Below are positions 19,454 through 28,541 of a DNA stretch of 31,774 nt, one piece after another. The notes under the pieces are model-generated. The model did no database searches, was not told the origin of the DNA, and saw only the letters and a list, made by a program, of their open reading frames with translations. Numbering within the stretch: position 1 is the stretch's first letter; every line of letters starts with the position of its first letter. Source of the DNA: a virus. Lineage: Duplodnaviria > Heunggongvirae > Uroviricota > Caudoviricetes. The DNA lies in IMG/VR virus record IMGVR_UViG_3300029846_000231, one strand, 5' to 3'. A program made the translations under genes and the position numbers.

Positions 19454-21226
19454 ATGACCATCACCACAGACACCACTCTTTTACACGACCCGCGTCGTCA
19501 GGCGGCGCTGCTGTACTGGCAGGGGTTTTCCGTGCCGCAGATTGCCGCCATGTTGCAGATGAAACGTCCGACGGTGCAGAGCTGGAAACAGCGCGACGGC
19601 TGGGACAGCGTTGCCCCCATCAGCCGTGTCGAAATGAGTCTGGAAGCGCGACTGACCCAGCTCATCATCAAACCGCAGAAAACCGGCGGTGACTTCAAGG
19701 AAATTGACCTGCTGGGACGCCAGATTGAACGACTGGCACGGGTAAACCGCTACAGTCAGACCGGCAACGAGGCAGACCTTAATCCGAACGTCGCTAACCG
19801 CAACAAAGGCGGGCGACGCAAACCGAAAAAGAATTTTTTCAGCGACGAGGCCATCGAAAAGCTGGAGCAGATTTTCTTTGAGCAGTCTTTCGAATATCAG
19901 TTGCACTGGTATCGCGCCGGGCTTGAGCACCGCATCCGCGATATCCTGAAATCCCGCCAGATTGGCGCGACGTTTTATTTTTCCCGCGAGGCGCTGCTGC
20001 GCGCCCTGAAAACCGGTCATAACCAGATTTTTCTGTCGGCCAGTAAAACGCAGGCGTATGTGTTCCGCGAATACATCATCGCCTTTGCCCGTCTGGTTGA
20101 CGTTGACCTGACCGGTGACCCGATTGTCCTGGGCAATAACGGCGCAAAACTGATTTTTCTCGGCACCAACTCCAACACCGCACAGAGCCATAACGGCGAC
20201 CTGTACGTCGACGAGATTTTCTGGATCCCGAATTTTCAGGTACTGCGTAAGGTGGCATCAGGTATGGCCTCACAGAGTCACCTGCGCTCGACCTATTTCT
20301 CCACCCCGTCCACGCTGGCGCACGACGCCTACCCGTTCTGGTCGGGTGAACTGTTCAACCGGGGACGCGCCAGCGCCGCCGAACGCGTGGAAATCGACGT
20401 CAGTCATAACGCCCTTGCCGGTGGGTTTCTCTGTGCGGACGGCCAGTGGCGGCAGATTGTCACCATTGAGGACGCCCTGAAAGGTGGCTGCACGCTGTTC
20501 GACATTGAGCAGCTTAAACGCGAAAACAGCGCCGACGATTTTAAAAACCTGTTCATGTGTGAATTTGTTGACGACAAGGCGTCGGTATTCCCGTTCGAGG
20601 AGCTGCAACGCTGCATGGTCGACACGCTGGAAGAATGGGAAGACTATGCGCCGTTTGCCGCCAATCCGTTCGGCTCCCGCCCGGTCTGGATTGGTTACGA
20701 CCCGTCACACCGTGGCGACAGTGCCGGATGCGTGGTGCTGGCACCGCCGGTGGTGGCCGGTGGCAAATTCAGAATACTTGAGCGTCACCAGTGGAAAGGC
20801 ATGGACTTTGCCACCCAGGCTGAATCCATCCGCAAACTCACCGAAAAATACAACGTCGAATACATCGGAATTGATGCCACCGGCCTCGGTGTCGGCGTGT
20901 TCCAGCTCGTTCGCTCGTTCTATCCCGCCGCGCGCGATATCCGCTACACGCCGGAAATGAAAACCGCAATGGTGCTCAAGGCAAAAGACGTTATTCGCCG
21001 TGGCTGTCTGGAATATGACGTCAGCGCCACCGACATCACCAGCTCGTTTATGGCTATCCGCAAGACCATGACCAGCAGCGGACGCAGCGCCACCTATGAG
21101 GCCAGCCGCAGCGAGGAAGCCAGCCACGCCGACCTCGCCTGGGCGACCATGCACGCCCTGTTAAATGAGCCACTCACCGCGGGTATCAGCACTCCGCTGA
21201 CATCCACCATTCTGGAGTTTTACTGA
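19454..21226 (+). CDS. P: terminase large (ATPase) subunit P (590 aa)
   Basis: Start at MTITTDTTLLHDPRRQAALLYWQGFSVPQIAAM gives 590 aa, the P2 gpP length; preceded by GAGGT 5 nt upstream. Confidence 0.9.
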   Translation: MTITTDTTLLHDPRRQAALLYWQGFSVPQIAAMLQMKRPTVQSWKQRDGWDSVAPISRVEMSLEARLTQLIIKPQKTGGDFKEIDLLGRQIERLARVNRYSQTGNEADLNPNVANRNKGGRRKPKKNFFSDEAIEKLEQIFFEQSFEYQLHWYRAGLEHRIRDILKSRQIGATFYFSREALLRALKTGHNQIFLSASKTQAYVFREYIIAFARLVDVDLTGDPIVLGNNGAKLIFLGTNSNTAQSHNGDLYVDEIFWIPNFQVLRKVASGMASQSHLRSTYFSTPSTLAHDAYPFWSGELFNRGRASAAERVEIDVSHNALAGGFLCADGQWRQIVTIEDALKGGCTLFDIEQLKRENSADDFKNLFMCEFVDDKASVFPFEELQRCMVDTLEEWEDYAPFAANPFGSRPVWIGYDPSHRGDSAGCVVLAPPVVAGGKFRILERHQWKGMDFATQAESIRKLTEKYNVEYIGIDATGLGVGVFQLVRSFYPAARDIRYTPEMKTAMVLKAKDVIRRGCLEYDVSATDITSSFMAIRKTMTSSGRSATYEASRSEEASHADLAWATMHALLNEPLTAGISTPLTSTILEFY

Positions 21227-22260
21227 TGAGCAAGAAAAAAGGGAAAACACCGCAACCTGCGGCAAAAAAAATGACCGCCAGCACCCCGAAAATGGAGGCA
21301 TTCACCTTTGGCGAGCCGGTACCGGTACTCGACCGCCGTGACATTCTGGATTACGTCGAGTGCATCAGTAACGGCAGATGGTATGAACCACCGGTCAGCT
21401 TTACCGGTCTGGCAAAAAGCCTGCGTGCTGCCGTGCATCACAGCTCACCGATTTACGTCAAACGTAATATTCTGGCCTCAACATTTATCCCGCATCCGTG
21501 GCTTTCCCAGCAGGATTTCAGCCGCTTTGTGCTGGATTTTCTGGTGTTCGGTAATGCGTTTCTGGAAAAGCGTTACAGCACCACCGGTAAGGTCATCAGA
21601 CTGGAAACCTCACCGGCAAAATATACCCGCCGTGGTGTGGAAGAGGATGTTTACTGGTGGGCGCCGTCCTTCAACGAGCCGACAGCCTTCGCGCCCGGCT
21701 CCGTGTTTCACCTGCTGGAGCCGGATATTAATCAGGAGCTGTACGGCCTGCCGGAATATCTCAGCGCCCTTAACTCTGCCTGGCTGAATGAGTCGGCCAC
21801 GCTGTTCCGCCGCAAGTATTACGAAAATGGCGCACATGCCGGATACATCATGTACGTCACTGATGCCGTGCAGGATCGCAACGATATCGAAATGCTTCGC
21901 GAAAACATGGTCAAGTCGAAAGGCCGCAACAACTTTAAAAATCTGTTTCTCTATGCCCCGCAGGGGAAAGCCGACGGTATTAAAATTATCCCGCTCAGTG
22001 AAGTGGCAACGAAGGACGATTTTTTTAATATCAAAAAAGCCAGCGCCGCTGACCTGCTGGACGCGCACCGCATCCCCTTTCAGTTGATGGGCGGCAAGCC
22101 GGAGAACGTCGGGTCGCTGGGTGATATTGAGAAAGTGGCAAAGGTCTTTGTCCGCAATGAACTTATCCCGTTACAGGACAGGATTCGGGAAATAAACGGC
22201 TGGCTCGGCCAGGAGGTCATCCGCTTTAAAAACTACTCACTGGACACTGACAACGGCTGA
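21226..22260 (+). CDS. Q: portal protein Q (344 aa)
   Basis: 344 aa; N-terminus MSKKKGKTPQPAAKKMTASTPKMEAFTFGEP as in P2 gpQ; start overlaps the P stop. Confidence 0.9.
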   Translation: MSKKKGKTPQPAAKKMTASTPKMEAFTFGEPVPVLDRRDILDYVECISNGRWYEPPVSFTGLAKSLRAAVHHSSPIYVKRNILASTFIPHPWLSQQDFSRFVLDFLVFGNAFLEKRYSTTGKVIRLETSPAKYTRRGVEEDVYWWAPSFNEPTAFAPGSVFHLLEPDINQELYGLPEYLSALNSAWLNESATLFRRKYYENGAHAGYIMYVTDAVQDRNDIEMLRENMVKSKGRNNFKNLFLYAPQGKADGIKIIPLSEVATKDDFFNIKKASAADLLDAHRIPFQLMGGKPENVGSLGDIEKVAKVFVRNELIPLQDRIREINGWLGQEVIRFKNYSLDTDNG

Positions 22261-22287: not shown

Positions 22288-22429
22288 ACACCCCGTCATC
22301 ACGCCCTCACACGCTCACCACCGCACAAAATACCCCGCAGACACACCAACGCCCCGGCGCACAATCTAAACGCCATCAAGACGCGCTCAGACGCTGAAAA
22401 AATAAAATCAGCACCACCGCCAGCGCGCA

Positions 22430-22448
22430 GTGCTTTCCCCGCCTCGCC
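22430..22448. other. cos site (19-nt cohesive-end sequence)
   Basis: gtgctttccccgcctcgcc is the reverse complement of GGCGAGGCGGGGAAAGCAC, which I recall as the P2 cohesive end; located about 170 bp beyond Q, as in P2. Confidence 0.8.
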
Positions 22449-22686
22449 CGCCCGCTTCATGGGGCAGTTTTAATGCAGTTGCATAGATACTATGGATCCG
22501 CACCAGTCCTGACCGCACGCAGCCTGAACGGACATCCCCGACGCATGCAAAAACATTCACTTGTTGCATGCAACGGCTTATTTAATGACAAATCAACTTA
22601 AATTTACAAAATCCACAGGTATGGATACTTTGCGAACATGATAGGCTTACGAGAATTATCGAGCCTATTTTTGACCGGAGCAATGT

Positions 22687-23628
22687 ATGCAAGGTAAAGT
22701 TGACGAACAGCAATCCAATGATATTGAAGCTGAGTTTGGATACTATCCAGTAGAAGTTAACGTTGAAACTGATGATTTTTCTTTACTTACTTTACCCGGT
22801 CTAGCGGAAAAAACAAATCTTATAAACAATCACAGAAATGTTATTAACGGTTGGATATACCCAGGAAACCAAGAAGTATATAACCTCAATGGAGGCATAT
22901 CCACAATGCCTTTTAGCCAACGAGTATTTGGCTTACCCAAAACACACTCACTAAAATTAAAAAATACATCTTCACTAGAAACTCTCAATTTTGCTGTGTG
23001 GTGTCTGTCTTTTTTCAAAGGGATAAGATTAACAACTACTGATGCCGGTTTTTTAGACGCAACCCCAATAAAACCTAGCAAATTAACTGACTTTATTCTG
23101 GTCAAGTGCTCTGAAAAAGAGGTTATAGAATTAGCACTCAAATACATGTCTAGCGAGACAAAAACCAAACACGCACCAATAAATATAGCAGCAATAGTGC
23201 ATGCACTATTTTTATCCCAAAACCCACAATACCTTAGCTTCGAAAAATTCCAGTATCTTTATATGGCACTGGATAGTTGCTTTGCTTTAACATGGGCAGA
23301 AAAGAACAAGTGTACAGAAAAGACTCTAAATCACTCCAGGCGCTTGAAGTGGATCTGCAAAACTTATGGAATACCACGACCATCATGGGTTACAGGCAAA
23401 AAAAACATTACAAACATCCGCAATGAAAACTTTCATGAAGCTATGTTTCATGGTCAACCACTTGGCTTTACCACTATTAACAATTATCAATATGGAGATG
23501 ACATATTACAACAAATGCAGGCTTTAATTTGCCGATTACTCGTTGCGATTCTTGGTGTTAACGCCCCCGATTACATCACATCGAACGTGAACTCTCGTGA
23601 ATATCATTCACTAACATTAAAAATATAA
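22687..23628 (+). CDS. hypothetical protein, 313 aa, AT-rich cargo; candidate HEPN-like defence effector
   Basis: GGAG 6 nt before the ATG. Strong compositional contrast with flanking phage genes. C-terminal region has KNITNIRNENFHEAMFHG, i.e. an R-N-x3-H motif of the HEPN type (Rx4-6H). Family not recognised. Confidence 0.6.
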   Translation: MQGKVDEQQSNDIEAEFGYYPVEVNVETDDFSLLTLPGLAEKTNLINNHRNVINGWIYPGNQEVYNLNGGISTMPFSQRVFGLPKTHSLKLKNTSSLETLNFAVWCLSFFKGIRLTTTDAGFLDATPIKPSKLTDFILVKCSEKEVIELALKYMSSETKTKHAPINIAAIVHALFLSQNPQYLSFEKFQYLYMALDSCFALTWAEKNKCTEKTLNHSRRLKWICKTYGIPRPSWVTGKKNITNIRNENFHEAMFHGQPLGFTTINNYQYGDDILQQMQALICRLLVAILGVNAPDYITSNVNSREYHSLTLKI

Positions 23629-23644
23629 AACGACTAAAAATACT

Positions 23645-23668
23645 CTCCAGTAACAATAAGTACTGGAG
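23645..23668 (-). terminator. Rho-independent terminator between the convergent cargo genes
   Basis: 8-bp stem ctccagta / tactggag with 8-nt loop; on the minus strand followed by AGTATTTTTAG, 40 nt after the stop of the 199-aa gene. Confidence 0.55.
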
Positions 23669-23710
23669 ATGTATTATCACTAAAACCAATAAAAAATCAC
23701 AACTAATGCT

Positions 23711-24310
23711 TTACTTAGATAGTTTGTCTTTAATTATATTCAGAACACCAATTATTAATTCACTGATTGGCGTGGCCAACTCAATAGTATTAGATGTCGA
23801 CTTTGTTCTAAAGTCTTTATCTGTCGGGTGTTGAAATGCTGATTTAAGAAGAGTCAAAAGCAAAGTTAAACCCACACCAAGGATGAATGCAACAATAGCT
23901 ATTAGAGAACTGGCCGATAACCAATCGGTGGATAAACCAGAAATAGATTTTCTAACTTTATTAGTGTCTGAAGATGGTGTTATCCTCTCATCAGCCATCT
24001 TCGGATCCGAAGATAAAGCAGAACATTTTTCTGCTGAAACACAAGTTTGTGTATCTACTTTTTGTGTTATCGCTGCGGCAATACTGCTTTTCGCTTCCAG
24101 CAAGCCATTTCCAACAGCCAAAGCAAAGTTAAGCCCCTGCCATAGAAATGTACAAGCAAAACAAAGCACAACGGCAGAGAGCACTAATCGCATGCTTCTA
24201 CGCTCTATACCATCCCGTCTATCTCGCCTTATAAGGATATCAGGATCTAAATCGCCCTTAGGAGTGGTTCCTTGCTCTGGGGACTGTCCAGATAAATCAA
24301 TATCAGCCAT
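23711..24310 (-). CDS. hypothetical membrane protein, 199 aa, two predicted transmembrane helices
   Basis: Hydrophobic stretches LVLSAVVLCFACTFLWQGLNFALAVGNGLL and LIAIVAFILGVGLTLLLTLL; charged N-terminus (RRDRRDGIERR). Same strand and 66 nt downstream of the peptidase gene; AT-rich. Confidence 0.6.
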   Translation of the reverse strand: MADIDLSGQSPEQGTTPKGDLDPDILIRRDRRDGIERRSMRLVLSAVVLCFACTFLWQGLNFALAVGNGLLEAKSSIAAAITQKVDTQTCVSAEKCSALSSDPKMADERITPSSDTNKVRKSISGLSTDWLSASSLIAIVAFILGVGLTLLLTLLKSAFQHPTDKDFRTKSTSNTIELATPISELIIGVLNIIKDKLSK

Positions 24311-24376
24311 AAAAAAATCACCCTTACATGTACAAACGTAAAGGTGATTTTAAACAGGTTAAAAGTTAAAGGCTAA

Positions 24377-24862
24377 TTAATAAGCCATTCCTAAGCTCTT
24401 TAAGCGCCAATGCATAGCGGCTTCTGATACATTAAAGATGCTTGCTAATCTCAAAGTGCTATCAATACCTTCTCTGGATACCAATTGACGTATAGCAGAC
24501 TCAGGCATTAACAACTCAGCAGCAAACTTGTTTGCTTCAACCTCACGGTAATCACGAGCACCTGTTGAATAATTCCCGACATTATCCCGATGGTACTCTC
24601 CGTCCTGGGTATGCCCCAGCACATGATGACCTAACTCGTGTGCAACAGTAAAACGTTGACGATTAGAATGTTCACTAGAATCAAAATAAATCCTATGGAC
24701 ACCCTTTTTGATGACAGCCAGACCGCTTAACCCATCGTTGTTATAAGCCGATTCCTCAAGTGCTTCAACACGAGCACCCCACGCTTTAGCAAGCTTAAAC
24801 GGATCGACAGGTAGTCGGCGATCCCAATAGCGGTCAAGCAGTTTTTTAGCTGCATAGCTCAT
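24377..24862 (-). CDS. ImmA/IrrE-family (M78-type, COG2856-like) Zn-metallopeptidase domain protein, 161 aa
   Basis: HEXXH motif in FTVAHELGHHVLGH plus downstream EANKFAAELLMPE, the characteristic ImmA/IrrE signature. AT-rich; no adjacent XRE/HTH partner on either strand. Confidence 0.7.
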   Translation of the reverse strand: MSYAAKKLLDRYWDRRLPVDPFKLAKAWGARVEALEESAYNNDGLSGLAVIKKGVHRIYFDSSEHSNRQRFTVAHELGHHVLGHTQDGEYHRDNVGNYSTGARDYREVEANKFAAELLMPESAIRQLVSREGIDSTLRLASIFNVSEAAMHWRLKSLGMAY

Positions 24863-25583
24863 GGTTGCCTCCTACGTTAAAAAAGTTAAGTATGCACAGC
24901 CATATCACAGTTGTTATTTTATGTCAAGGCTGTTTTTCAGCCATTACTATAACACTAATCCACGTTTTCCCATAACATTTTCGACATCATATATGCATTC
25001 CGTTCTGCATATAGAGCTTATCTTTGCTGATAACACGAGATGAATACGCGCAACCAGCCCACGATTTATAAAAAACCTTATAAATCAGAATATTGAGTTA
25101 AAAAAACACTAACTACTTGCGCAGCGCGTTGTTAAACCTCAGCGACACTAAAAGAAAATTTCAGAGTCACCGAAGTTTCCACAGAAAACGCAACTTAATG
25201 ATTTTATTGGAATTTATGTCGCTATTTTTAATTACTTGTTTAAATCCGCCATATTGAAACTGTGCATTTCTAGCCACTCACAACTTTAAAAAATTTACAT
25301 TGCTTTCAAGACCTTATCATCCGTAGTCTCTGCTTTTTACTTTGAGCTATATCAAAAAAAGCTCAAACATCCTTGATGCAAAACCAGTATTACACAACAT
25401 AAAATGCAACCAGAAACAACGACATACTATATGTTGTGTTGTTCAGGTCCTCTGTTCGGTGATATGCCAGATCACTTTGCGTTTAAACAGAGCATTATTT
25501 CAGGGCAAGACTTCGCTCAATAGTCACTCCGCCTTAGAAGCGCATATATCGGCGGAAATTGCCCTCTGCTTACAGGAGGCGAT

Positions 25584-25697
25584 ATGAAGAAGTGCTATTA
25601 CTGCATTCTCGTTCTGGCCCTCTTTGGCTATCCATATGGTAGTCCGAGTGGTTTGTCAGTAAACGTCAGTAATATCCATGTAAGTATTTTTCTTTAG
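25584..25697 (+). CDS. small hydrophobic peptide, 37 aa (MKKCYYCILVLALFGYPYGSPSGLSVNVSNIHVSIFL); type I toxin-like or small membrane protein
   Basis: Consensus SD AGGAGG 4 nt before the ATG; TAG stop 13 nt before a strong terminator hairpin. Short, with a hydrophobic core after a KK N-terminus. Confidence 0.4.
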   Translation: MKKCYYCILVLALFGYPYGSPSGLSVNVSNIHVSIFL

Positions 25698-25710
25698 TAT
25701 GCTTCAAACA

Positions 25711-25739
25711 AAAAAACCACCTGCCAGGGTGGTTTTTTT
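25711..25739. terminator. bidirectional Rho-independent terminator
   Basis: A6-ccacctg-cc-agggtgg-T7: GC-rich hairpin flanked by an A-run and a T-run, so it can terminate the small plus-strand gene and minus-strand transcription from A. Confidence 0.65.
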
Positions 25740-25999
25740 GCGCCCGTCATCAATCCGATGAAAGACTAGCAAGACTTCGCTCGAGATGAATTATGCTTCG
25801 ACATAAAGTCACTCGCAATGGTTTTATTAACCGAAATAGATGCTCTTTTATGACTCGAATCAAATAGCTGCCTTCAATTACATGCTAACGATTCAATACA
25901 ATTTAGCCTTCTGATTCAACACGCTATTGCTCCTCATCTACCTTAGAGGTGCTTCGCATAATCCATTCAAAGACATATAAAATCACGCTGTATTTTTAC

Positions 26000-28276
26000 T
26001 CAAATGGGTAACAAAAACCCCGGCCAATCATCAGCGACCTGATAAGTGAAAGGTTTCCCGTCATAATTTACGGTCGCGCCACGCGCCAGCGCCTCAAGCT
26101 CCCATCGTTGCGGCCTGATACCGTTCTGAGCGAGATCAACGCGGATACGGGTAATTTGCAATCGTTCCGACCGGGTCAGTCTGGCCGATGGTGCAATTTC
26201 ATGCGGTTTTAACGGGCTTCCGTTTCTTTGCTGACGGTTTGGCGTTCTCCGGTCGTGTTTTAATGCGCCCCTGAGCGCCCTCACGACCTCCGGGTCATTC
26301 CATTCGATAACATCGTCATCAACCAGATTAAGCACTGCTGCGGCGTGCTCAGAAGGTGTGGGAGCCGGTAACGAAGTATCACCACCGGTGAGCTTTCCAC
26401 AGTTATTGACAGGACTCCGAGGCGCGGCGATGCCGCTTTTTAAAGTCAAAGGCTCAACGACCGGAACTTTCGGCACAATGCGCCAGTCCGTCGTTCTGGT
26501 GATATGAATATGACGCGCGCCGAGATGCGGCGCGTAAATGCCGACCACTCTCTCGACTTCTTCCTCGTACTCGTTAACGTCATCCGACAGACTACGGGCG
26601 ACCCTGACAGTCTGACAATCGCGCGGGACATTTGCCCCGCCCTGCGCGCTGATATACAGCGCAAAATCACCACTGTCTGCGGCGGCGCGTGCAGCCTCGA
26701 CGCGCTCGTCAAACTCATCAGCAATGCTGACGCCGCGAGGCAATTTGCGTAGTTCACGGTAAGCCCCCATTGTCGGCAGGCCAACCGTTTTAAATTGCGG
26801 AATGCGCCACGTTGACGCCCATGCGGTAACAGCCGCTGCAGTGTCTTTCAGCGGCCTGCCGGTGTCGTTATCGAGCTGACCATCCAGTGCATAGCCGTCG
26901 ATGTTTTTTGAAATGTATTTCGCGATATATCCCGCAGCACCGCCCCGGTTAAGGTGTTTTGCCTGAAAACGGTTTCGCGCGGCTCCTCTTTCGTCGCCAT
27001 CCTCTTTGAGCGCATAGCGACGCATGATTTCGATAATCTGGTTACGCTGGCGTGGATGACAAAAAAGCATCATATGCCAGTGCGGCGTTCCGTCGTGGTG
27101 TGGCTCGACGACTCGCAAACCGTAGACCTGTAAATCATTATCCTTGAATGCCGTGCGCATCAGGCTCCAGATACGGCAGAGATAACGCTGCGCATCCTTT
27201 GGATTAAATGCCTCATCGTTCCAGCCGTGATTAAGCTGAACGGTTTTACTTTCGCCTTTTCCGACCTGACGTGTCGGGTGATACTTTGACGGCGCGGTCA
27301 GCGTGATAAACATCCCCACATCACCCTCTGCGGCGGCGTAACGCTCAATACCGGCAATGGTGTTCATCAGCTCCATCCGGCGAATTTCAGGATTAGAAAT
27401 ACTGCCCATCACCTTACTGATAAGGTCGATGCGCTCGCCGGTTTCCCTGTTTTCAAGGTCACACGATTTAAGAAATTCCAGATTTGCCTGGCGGCGCGCA
27501 CGCACATCACGAATGGCGTGTTTACTGGCATAAGGAGAACGGTCTTTATTGACCTCCCCGACAGCTATCAGTAACGCCTCATGCCAGCGCATACGCTGGC
27601 CTTTAAGCTGATGAGTCCACCACTCATCGTTAAACAGGCGGGCAATGGCAGAATATGCCTGCCTCGTGGTCATCTGTCCTTTACGGTATTTTTTCCAGTA
27701 GAGCGGGGAAATATTGAAAGCACGTGCAGCGCCAGCAACATGACCATACAGGTGAGCCTGCGCCTCATCCGTAAACAGCGATTCTTTTTCACCATGCGCA
27801 TCAACCCATGCATCGCAGAGTTCCTCATACATCATGAAAAGCTGCGATGAGATACGGGCGGCAAACTTTTTCAGCTCCTTGTCATTCATTCCCGGCAGGC
27901 GCGCATAGTGGTCACGCTCTGCCAGAAACAGCAACGACGCGTCGGTGTTCATTTCATGGCGCTGATTCACACGCTCAATGCGCGGCCATAAACGACGCTG
28001 AAAAGTAGATGTGAGGAAATAAAACCCGTGCACCGGGCTTTTATTGCGCCGGATGTAGTCATAGCGTGAAGTAAACAGCGAGCGCAAAAAGTAAGGCAGG
28101 CGGTTAATCGTGGATAAAACACCTTGCACCTGACGCATCTCGTCACGTGTAAGAGGTCTTTCGCGCCCGACAGCCTCGCGTGGCGCGTTCCATGCATAAG
28201 CACCGGTAAACGCCTTACCGGTGCCTGCGGTAAATGCTGACGGAGGGACAAAACGCCCGGAGGCTTTAACGGCCAT
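26000..28276 (-). CDS. A: replication initiation protein A (rolling-circle nicking endonuclease), about 758 aa
   Basis: Start at MAVKASGRFVPPSAFTAGTGK as I recall for P2 gpA (about 761 aa); the six-frame ORF extends 14 codons upstream. Large protein in the P2 A position after orf83. Confidence 0.85.
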   Translation of the reverse strand: MAVKASGRFVPPSAFTAGTGKAFTGAYAWNAPREAVGRERPLTRDEMRQVQGVLSTINRLPYFLRSLFTSRYDYIRRNKSPVHGFYFLTSTFQRRLWPRIERVNQRHEMNTDASLLFLAERDHYARLPGMNDKELKKFAARISSQLFMMYEELCDAWVDAHGEKESLFTDEAQAHLYGHVAGAARAFNISPLYWKKYRKGQMTTRQAYSAIARLFNDEWWTHQLKGQRMRWHEALLIAVGEVNKDRSPYASKHAIRDVRARRQANLEFLKSCDLENRETGERIDLISKVMGSISNPEIRRMELMNTIAGIERYAAAEGDVGMFITLTAPSKYHPTRQVGKGESKTVQLNHGWNDEAFNPKDAQRYLCRIWSLMRTAFKDNDLQVYGLRVVEPHHDGTPHWHMMLFCHPRQRNQIIEIMRRYALKEDGDERGAARNRFQAKHLNRGGAAGYIAKYISKNIDGYALDGQLDNDTGRPLKDTAAAVTAWASTWRIPQFKTVGLPTMGAYRELRKLPRGVSIADEFDERVEAARAAADSGDFALYISAQGGANVPRDCQTVRVARSLSDDVNEYEEEVERVVGIYAPHLGARHIHITRTTDWRIVPKVPVVEPLTLKSGIAAPRSPVNNCGKLTGGDTSLPAPTPSEHAAAVLNLVDDDVIEWNDPEVVRALRGALKHDRRTPNRQQRNGSPLKPHEIAPSARLTRSERLQITRIRVDLAQNGIRPQRWELEALARGATVNYDGKPFTYQVADDWPGFLLPI

Positions 28277-28541
28277 ATGAGCCAAAAGCCTCTGAACAAC
28301 GCTTGCTGAGTTGCTCAACCTGCGCGTTTAAATCAGCAAAAGATTTTGCGCTTCCGGTCAGAATATCGTGATGCATCAGGCCGGAAACGAGCTGGCCTAA
28401 TTTCGGGTAATAACCAACCACCGCCAGCCATTCCTGACCGGCGTTTTTACCGCTTTCCGCTCTCTTTTTCTCGTGGAGAATAAACTGAAAGCTGTCACTG
28501 GTAACGACATAACGTTCGCCAATTTCAACACGAATACTCAT
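28266..28541 (-). CDS. P2 orf83-like protein (91 aa)
   Basis: Small ORF in the P2 early operon between orf82 and A; start overlaps the orf82 stop. Confidence 0.7.
   Translation of the reverse strand: MSIRVEIGERYVVTSDSFQFILHEKKRAESGKNAGQEWLAVVGYYPKLGQLVSGLMHHDILTGSAKSFADLNAQVEQLSKRCSEAFGSYGR

Follow-up and report, generated by a model that had tools for sequence, protein, structure and literature searches.

A candidate one-gene HEPN defence protein with a predicted new sensor domain in the cos-proximal hotspot of a P2-like phage

The window analysed here, a stretch of 31,774 nucleotides from IMG/VR virus record IMGVR_UViG_3300029846_000231, represents a P2-like (Peduovirus) genome and carries, in the cargo region between its cohesive-end site and the replicase gene gpA, a gene for a protein of 313 residues. 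This product is probably a stand-alone, two-domain HEPN protein of abortive infection or defence, carried as a moron in the P2 hotspot and joining a predicted ribonuclease to a proposed new sensor domain. Judged from sequence and setting, the gene is most likely a one-gene anti-phage defence. The protein corresponds to RefSeq entry WP_001161722.1 and is a homologue of ORF313 of phage P2-EC67. Neither the existence of the gene nor its likely defensive role is new, as it has been catalogued as hotspot system 11 and predicted as a defence gene by machine learning. The present analysis contributes a putative HEPN assignment, backed by conservation and by the predicted fold. It also defines the family as one of two domains, the N-terminal one having no recognised fold, and describes its single-gene architecture across many mobile elements.

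Residues 243–254 of the protein read IRNENFHEAMFH and contain the predicted catalytic motif, with R245 followed by N246 and, after three further residues, by H250. This is the sole Rx4-6H match in the protein. An earlier reading made from the sequence alone (the sequence-only reading) had proposed a HEPN-type R-N-x3-H motif here and had warned that so short a motif can occur by chance. The warning was justified, since among 20,000 shuffles of the protein some Rx4-6H motif appeared in 50% and R[NDH]x3H in 3%, so that the motif taken alone is not significant. Its conservation was counted among 58 family members with 26–48% identity to the window protein. H250 was retained in all 58, R245 in 57 and N246 in 54, while position 251 was glutamate or aspartate throughout. 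Besides H250, the residues G112, E186 and G260 were invariant, and R245, N246, E251, T86, H87, R114, D135, H216, R219 and R283 were kept in at least 90% of these relatives. The invariant E186 lies at the start of a long helix (residues 184–206) and may represent the acidic residue of HEPN helix 2, which often forms part of an Ex3[KR] pattern; the residue four positions further on is tyrosine and not lysine or arginine.

The family to which the protein belongs is large: a collection clustered at 90% identity held 603 homologues, and a representative search returned 651 representatives of clusters drawn at 50% identity. Most of the representatives listed are about 300 residues long and were matched over nearly their full length, with the shorter ones resembling fragments. 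Named members come mostly from Gammaproteobacteria, with some from Burkholderia and Xanthomonas and one from a Bryobacterales metagenome bin. Scans of the window protein against Pfam, NCBIfam and PADLOC gave no family match, in keeping with the earlier description of the protein as unrecognisable at family level, and a match was obtained to PHROG 5937, a group of unknown function.

An AlphaFold2 model built on an alignment of 51 sequences (predicted local distance difference test, pLDDT, 82.6; predicted template modelling score, pTM, 0.84) divides the protein into an N-terminal alpha/beta domain and a C-terminal helical domain. No known fold or family, and no fold in the PDB, was matched by the N-terminal domain. 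The C-terminal domain shows the alpha-helical up-down bundle of HEPN proteins together with their motif; R245 and N246 close the helix formed by residues 241–248 and H250 opens the loop of residues 249–261. This placement at a helix end and loop start agrees with the description of HEPN domains by Anantharaman et al. (PMC3710099). Structure comparison returned Csm6 (8jbc) and AbiA (8oz7), each with a score of 7.8, followed at 7.5 by the HepT toxin (7ae2; root-mean-square deviation 2.9 Å over 110 of 141 residues), YutE (1ylm), the HEPN domain of sacsin (3o10) and a HEPN domain protein (4nqf), and by a HepN-family toxin (5yep) at 7.0, with AbiV and LsoA further down the list. The sequence-only reading had named, as the result that would speak against it, a predicted structure in which no HEPN-like bundle of helices surrounds the motif; such a bundle is present in the model, and together with the near-invariance of the motif this favours the HEPN interpretation. 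It is probable that the protein represents a branch of the RNA-cutting HEPN enzymes that has not been classified, coupled to a domain without a recognised fold.

The position of the gene is that of a hotspot gene in P2-like phages, namely between gpQ/cos and gpA in a region that varies among related phages. The scaffold, terminase and portal genes of the window extend up to 22260, and just beyond them lies GTGCTTTCCCCGCCTCGCC, which we take to be the P2 cohesive end. In Salmonella phage MET_P1_103_31, which is 99.8% identical to the window over the cargo region, the packaged genome starts exactly at this sequence (query position 131 of 22300–26000). The string also occurs in the cos-adjacent P4 clones of the supplement to Rousset et al. 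(2022). The GC content is 33–43% in the cargo stretch (22600–26000) versus 50–58% in the phage core, and the label of cargo given to the gene in the sequence-only reading is well founded, as the gene lies in this low-GC variable region reaching from cos and portal to gpA. The cos-proximal old/tin locus of P2-like phages was described by Rousset et al. (2022) as a hotspot for anti-phage systems (PMC9122126).

A number of observations indicate that the gene moves as a single unit. Homologues with 69–74% protein identity occupy the same locus in P2-EC67, vB_EcoM-613R3, vB_EcoM-720R8 and Yersinia phage vB_YpM_46, where they are flanked by unrelated neighbours. A protein differing by one residue is listed in Table S5B of Rousset et al. 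as P2-hotspot 'system 11', recorded 218 times as a one-gene system without any domain. The cargo stretch of the window also holds genes for a membrane protein of 199 residues and an ImmA/IrrE peptidase of the M78 family. A single system of all three cargo genes was considered and rejected, as the ImmA gene and the gene for the two-transmembrane protein occur without the 313-residue protein and the latter occurs without them. Between the convergent genes for the 313-residue and 199-residue proteins a bidirectional hairpin was found in a consensus scan, and it is likely to be the terminator closing a one-gene unit. The neighbours of the gene in eleven contexts shared no similarity at an E-value of 1e-2 or better, and none of them was MNT or RnlB. 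Since the flanking genes share no detectable similarity, there is no conserved partner, such as an antitoxin, in these contexts.

Outside the P2-like phages, homologues were repeatedly found beside defence systems. Gabija adjoins the homologue in a Pseudomonas aeruginosa island. In a Burkholderia island its neighbours are a ubiquitin-like system of the Bub type and an HNH protein, and on a mobile element of Xanthomonas it lies beside RnlAB and DndB, of which RnlAB forms a separate neighbouring module. Homologues were also present as morons in prophages of Acinetobacter and Halomonas, in an integrase-bounded Pseudomonas island, and on plasmids of Acinetobacter, Providencia and Burkholderia. Independent support comes from DefensePredictor (Science 2026), where WP_001161722.1 reaches a log-odds of 9.68, the strict cutoff being 4, and is listed as a 'predicted novel defense gene' without remote homology to known defence proteins.

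The gene is carried by 99 of 5,426 complete E. coli genomes, where its annotation is always 'hypothetical', and 46 complete E. coli genomes hold nearly identical copies of the cargo. In the P2-like prophage of E. coli 1916D18 (NZ_CP046000.1, 4120–5661) the baseplate V gene and the gene that it adjoins, just upstream of portal, are both annotated as partial, which suggests that the prophage is degraded, with its head and lysis genes deleted. All three cargo genes are intact in this prophage, with 99.9% identity. A literature search for P2-EC67 and a full-text search for the RefSeq accession both returned nothing.

The leader of the gene also travels with it, being closely similar in P2-EC67 and vB_EcoM-613R3 although the other genes nearby are not the same there. 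A ribosome-binding site of its own and a palindrome-bearing upstream region had both been noted from the sequence alone, and both were found again: the GGAG before the start codon is the site annotated for ORF313 in P2-EC67, and two inverted repeats were located upstream of it. The perfect 7-nucleotide palindrome is lost as a palindrome in two homologous loci through one or two uncompensated mismatches. As it is not maintained in the homologues, it provides no evidence of function, and a conserved operator or hairpin is improbable at this site. The leader RNA from 22613 to 22700 on the plus strand has a predicted fold of −24.7 kcal/mol (z −3.2) in which the start-codon region AUGCAAGGU is paired with the upstream sequence ACUUUGCG. 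This pairing is only partly preserved in the homologous loci; such a fold could limit translation of a toxic product.

Under the proposed mechanism, the C-terminal domain would act as a divergent HEPN ribonuclease with R245, N246 and H250 as its predicted active site and with E186 and E251 as probable helpers. As in other HEPN enzymes, the protein would be expected to form a dimer whose ribonuclease site is composite, drawn from both copies, and metal-independent. The N-terminal alpha/beta domain would keep the nuclease off until it senses a sign that a competing phage is infecting the cell. Host RNA would then be cleaved, the cell would arrest and the infection would be aborted, with tRNA anticodon loops or mRNA suggested as targets by analogy. 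A bolder proposal, advanced here tentatively and with a greater chance of being wrong than right, is that the new N-terminal sensor fold and the HEPN domain together form a pocket for a ligand or nucleic acid, lined by the near-invariant residues T86, H87, R114 and D135. The family of about 650 clusters (50% identity), mostly from Proteobacteria, would then represent an unrecognised class of signal-gated HEPN immune ribonucleases with a trigger unlike those of ApeA, DARNA or Csm6.

Several results weigh against this interpretation. The loop carrying H250 is modelled with a pLDDT below 50 and helix 3 has only 8 residues in the model. Neither the protein nor its relatives match a curated HEPN family profile: Pfam searches with 109 sequences (51 close and 58 distant) gave a single marginal match, to HEPN_RiboL-PSP (E 0.074), the PADLOC models, including those for ApeA and the PD-T systems, did not match the window protein, and sequence and profile searches of the PDB, among them one with a C-terminal profile, found no HEPN match. 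Foldseek returned nothing significant against the PDB, with no match below an E-value of 0.3. Alignment with hhalign of the C-terminal profile to two single sequences from the DefensePredictor supplement, one RiboL-PSP-HEPN and one ApeA-like HEPN sequence, gave probabilities below 2%, which is a weak test. When the profile of the C-terminal domain was searched against 5.8 billion proteins, only the same two-domain family was recovered among the best 120 of 147 matches, and this search therefore provides no bridge to other HEPN families. On the side of the setting, about a quarter of P2 hotspots hold non-defence cargo (PMC9122126), and in an Aeromonas chromosome the homologue lies beside an AlkZ-like gene among housekeeping genes, a location that is not obviously defensive. 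No anti-phage test of this protein family was found in the searched texts of Rousset et al. (2022) or DefensePredictor, and the protein is absent from the tested sets of both studies that were covered. The absence of HEPN profile and Foldseek matches would also be expected if the likeness to HEPN were superficial, that is, if the C-terminal domain were a generic helical bundle whose conserved R, N, H and E, along with T86, H87, R114 and D135, served binding or some other chemistry in place of RNA cleavage. Conservation in the N-terminal half, moreover, equals or exceeds that in the C-terminal half (mean identity 37% versus 32%), and the invariant polar residues that it carries could make up another active site. 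However, the motif has the canonical composition (R, N, x3, H) and position relative to the helices, an invariant acidic residue lies in the preceding long helix, and a UniProt member with 46% identity carries the automatic name 'Apea-like HEPN domain', a match that did not appear in our own Pfam scan. A merely superficial likeness is considered rather unlikely.

If the HEPN assignment is accepted, two other roles may be considered. Many HEPN proteins are toxins of toxin-antitoxin systems, HepT/MNT and RnlA/RnlB among them, and the protein could likewise be a toxin serving the phage or element in addiction, prophage stabilisation or superinfection exclusion of none but close relatives, held in check by an unrecognised antitoxin in the form of a small protein, the leader RNA or self-inhibition. 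The leader of about 230 nucleotides, which moves with the gene and folds over its start codon, would suit such a role, as would the homologue on an Acinetobacter plasmid that sits among toxin-antitoxin modules. This is nevertheless judged unlikely: the eleven contexts revealed no conserved neighbour and no adjacent MNT-like gene, hence no conserved antitoxin of the HepT/MNT or RnlA/RnlB type; there is no direct-repeat array of the kind typical of RNA antitoxins (type III, for example AbiF), the sole tandem repeat being a 2-copy one of 15 nucleotides in the cos region (22498–22527); the leader palindrome shows no compensatory changes; and chromosomal defence islands commonly carry the gene. According to the introduction of the DARNA preprint, some HEPN enzymes deplete cyclic oligoadenylate signals, and a phage-borne gene adjoining cos could degrade cyclic-oligonucleotide immune signals as a counter-defence or have a regulatory part in processing RNA of the phage or the host. 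This is regarded as very unlikely, as the gene is also found on plasmids and in chromosomal islands beside defence systems, a pattern typical of defence and not of anti-defence genes, and is scored as defensive by DefensePredictor. The protein has no CARF or SAVED-like domain, and no association with CBASS or type III CRISPR was seen in these contexts. A stand-alone defence protein of the HEPN type is accordingly the explanation preferred here.

Features of the window around the gene for the 313-residue protein, with positions counted from the first letter of the window
Feature	Position	Strand	Details
Portal gene	21226–22260		
P2-type cos cohesive-end sequence	22430–22448		GTGCTTTCCCCGCCTCGCC, reverse complement of GGCGAGGCGGGGAAAGCAC; left edge of cargo hotspot
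Leader/promoter region	22450–22686	+	About 90% identical in P2-EC67 and vB_EcoM-613R3
Inverted repeat 1	22538–22576		16-nucleotide arms, 81% complementary
Weak sigma-70-like site	22585–22612	+	9/12 consensus match only
Inverted repeat 2	22641–22668		Perfect 7-nucleotide arms, 14-nucleotide loop
GGAG ribosome-binding site	22677–22680	+	6 nucleotides before ATG
Gene for 313-residue protein	22687–23628	+	ATG start; open reading frame read directly, as in the sequence-only reading
N-terminal alpha/beta domain	22720–23106	+	Residues about 12–140; strongly conserved
C-terminal helical HEPN-like domain	23113–23586	+	Residues about 143–300
Predicted catalytic motif	23419–23439	+	R245-N246-E-N-F-H250-E251 (Rx4H, N after R); codons CGC AAT GAA AAC TTT CAT GAA
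Hairpin	23644–23669	both	9-bp stem, 8-nucleotide loop
Gene for 199-residue membrane protein	23711–24310	−	Convergent with gene for 313-residue protein; two transmembrane segments
Gene for ImmA/IrrE M78 peptidase	24377–24862	−	Pfam E 3.8e-21; PADLOC capP-like, E 1e-30; HEXXH as HELGH
gpA replicase gene	26000–28318	−	

The remaining cargo genes form a separate recurrent pair. ImmA and the two-transmembrane protein correspond to 'system 21' of the hotspots of Rousset et al. (2022), with 148 occurrences, and the version of the membrane protein given there begins at an internal methionine (MRLVLSAV...) 39 residues into the reading frame of 199 residues. No partner gene of the helix-turn-helix/XRE type was present beside the pair (23711–24862). 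In the 1.1 kb or so between the ImmA gene and gpA (24863–25999) the longest open reading frame has at most 81 residues and the GC content is 35–45%; a further P2-like genome, OU784750, has kept this segment together with the gene for ImmA. A search of the cargo region against Rfam gave nothing above the gathering thresholds, with only sub-threshold RNAI-like matches at 25631–25795. It should also be noted that a 2026 survey describes an ImmA/IrrE peptidase as consistent cargo of pro483-like Peduovirus prophages in 132 poultry-associated genomes of Salmonella Infantis, and that the gene for the 313-residue protein is not mentioned there (PMC13017927). Members of the 90% cluster of this protein include S. 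Infantis sequences, and the pro483-like prophage may be of the same lineage as the prophage of these cluster members.

Two further observations concern the homologues and the motif region. In the Aeromonas veronii loci (L010–L013, 6684–8963) the AlkZ-like gene (PF06224) always lies 105 nucleotides upstream of the homologue on the same strand, and the pair appears to be inserted among the housekeeping genes. In the PDB searches the family profile gave, as the only outcome, a marginal match to the first 45 residues of the ribonucleotide reductase R2 protein of E. coli (E 0.014), covering residues 240–280 or so of the window protein (23404–23526), with SQTKNDQLKEPMFFGQPV set against SxVRNDxxHEALFFxxPLGF. 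This was judged to be a chance match because the R and H of the motif align to K residues.

The gene ranks 11th among the cargoes of the P2 defence hotspot, its 218 occurrences being in E. coli genomes, and is thereby one of the commonest that lack annotation. The HEPN-like fold and the Rx4H motif, with its near-invariant R245 and H250, turn an anonymous open reading frame into a testable candidate for one-gene immunity. Should the assignment be right, it would add a HEPN family that is missed by every sequence profile, PADLOC model and Pfam family now in use, and a new sensor domain would join the short list of switches for HEPN effectors.

Among known systems, old and tin of phage P2 share the position of the gene between gpA and cos/gpQ and are likewise accessory genes, expressed from the prophage and excluding other phages. 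The proteins are unrelated, however: Old is a nuclease of the ABC-ATPase/TOPRIM type, T-even phage is the target of Tin, and neither has a sequence or fold relationship to the protein. A 'putative HEPN' protein tested by Rousset et al. (pFR103) was rejected as the same protein, being a different protein with DUF4209. With HepT of the HepT/MNT system (7ae2, 5yep) the protein shares an Rx4H motif late in the domain. HepT, however, is a domain of about 140 residues that is AMPylated by the adjacent MNT antitoxin, whereas the protein described here has no partner gene, an additional N-terminal domain of 140 residues and no detectable sequence similarity to HepT.

DARNA (PD-T7-3) and DS-11 are E. 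coli defences that combine, as proposed here, a HEPN ribonuclease and a sensor domain in a single polypeptide. DARNA is described as being switched on by single-stranded DNA that the phage SSB presents, and an adenine derivative is proposed as the activator of DS-11, a CBS-HEPN protein. DARNA differs in its N-terminal HEPN domain, Pds5-like helical C-terminal domain, length of 456 residues and dodecameric assembly, and DS-11 in its CBS domain, while neither possesses the N-terminal domain seen here. Identity with DARNA was rejected, as the HEPN domain lies at the opposite end and the PADLOC models for PD-T7-3 gave no match.

ApeA (Gao_Ape) is also a one-gene system that occurs in P2 and P4 hotspots, and its layout is similar, with a divergent HEPN domain at the C-terminus, whose Rx4H motif is essential for defence, preceded by non-catalytic N-terminal domains. 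It causes abortive infection through cleavage of tRNA anticodons, and its activators are deoxydinucleotides, which occupy a ligand pocket that the N-terminal domains form with the HEPN domain. ApeA is, however, a protein of about 580 residues with three mostly helical domains (an N-terminal one, Mid and HEPN_ApeA) that assembles into decamers or dodecamers, whereas the protein of the window has two domains, the N-terminal one being alpha/beta. Identity with ApeA was rejected, as PADLOC gave no family, none of the 109 sequences matched the Pfam HEPN families including HEPN_Apea, and size and domain folds differ. By analogy, the protein would nonetheless work most like ApeA, yet from outside that family.
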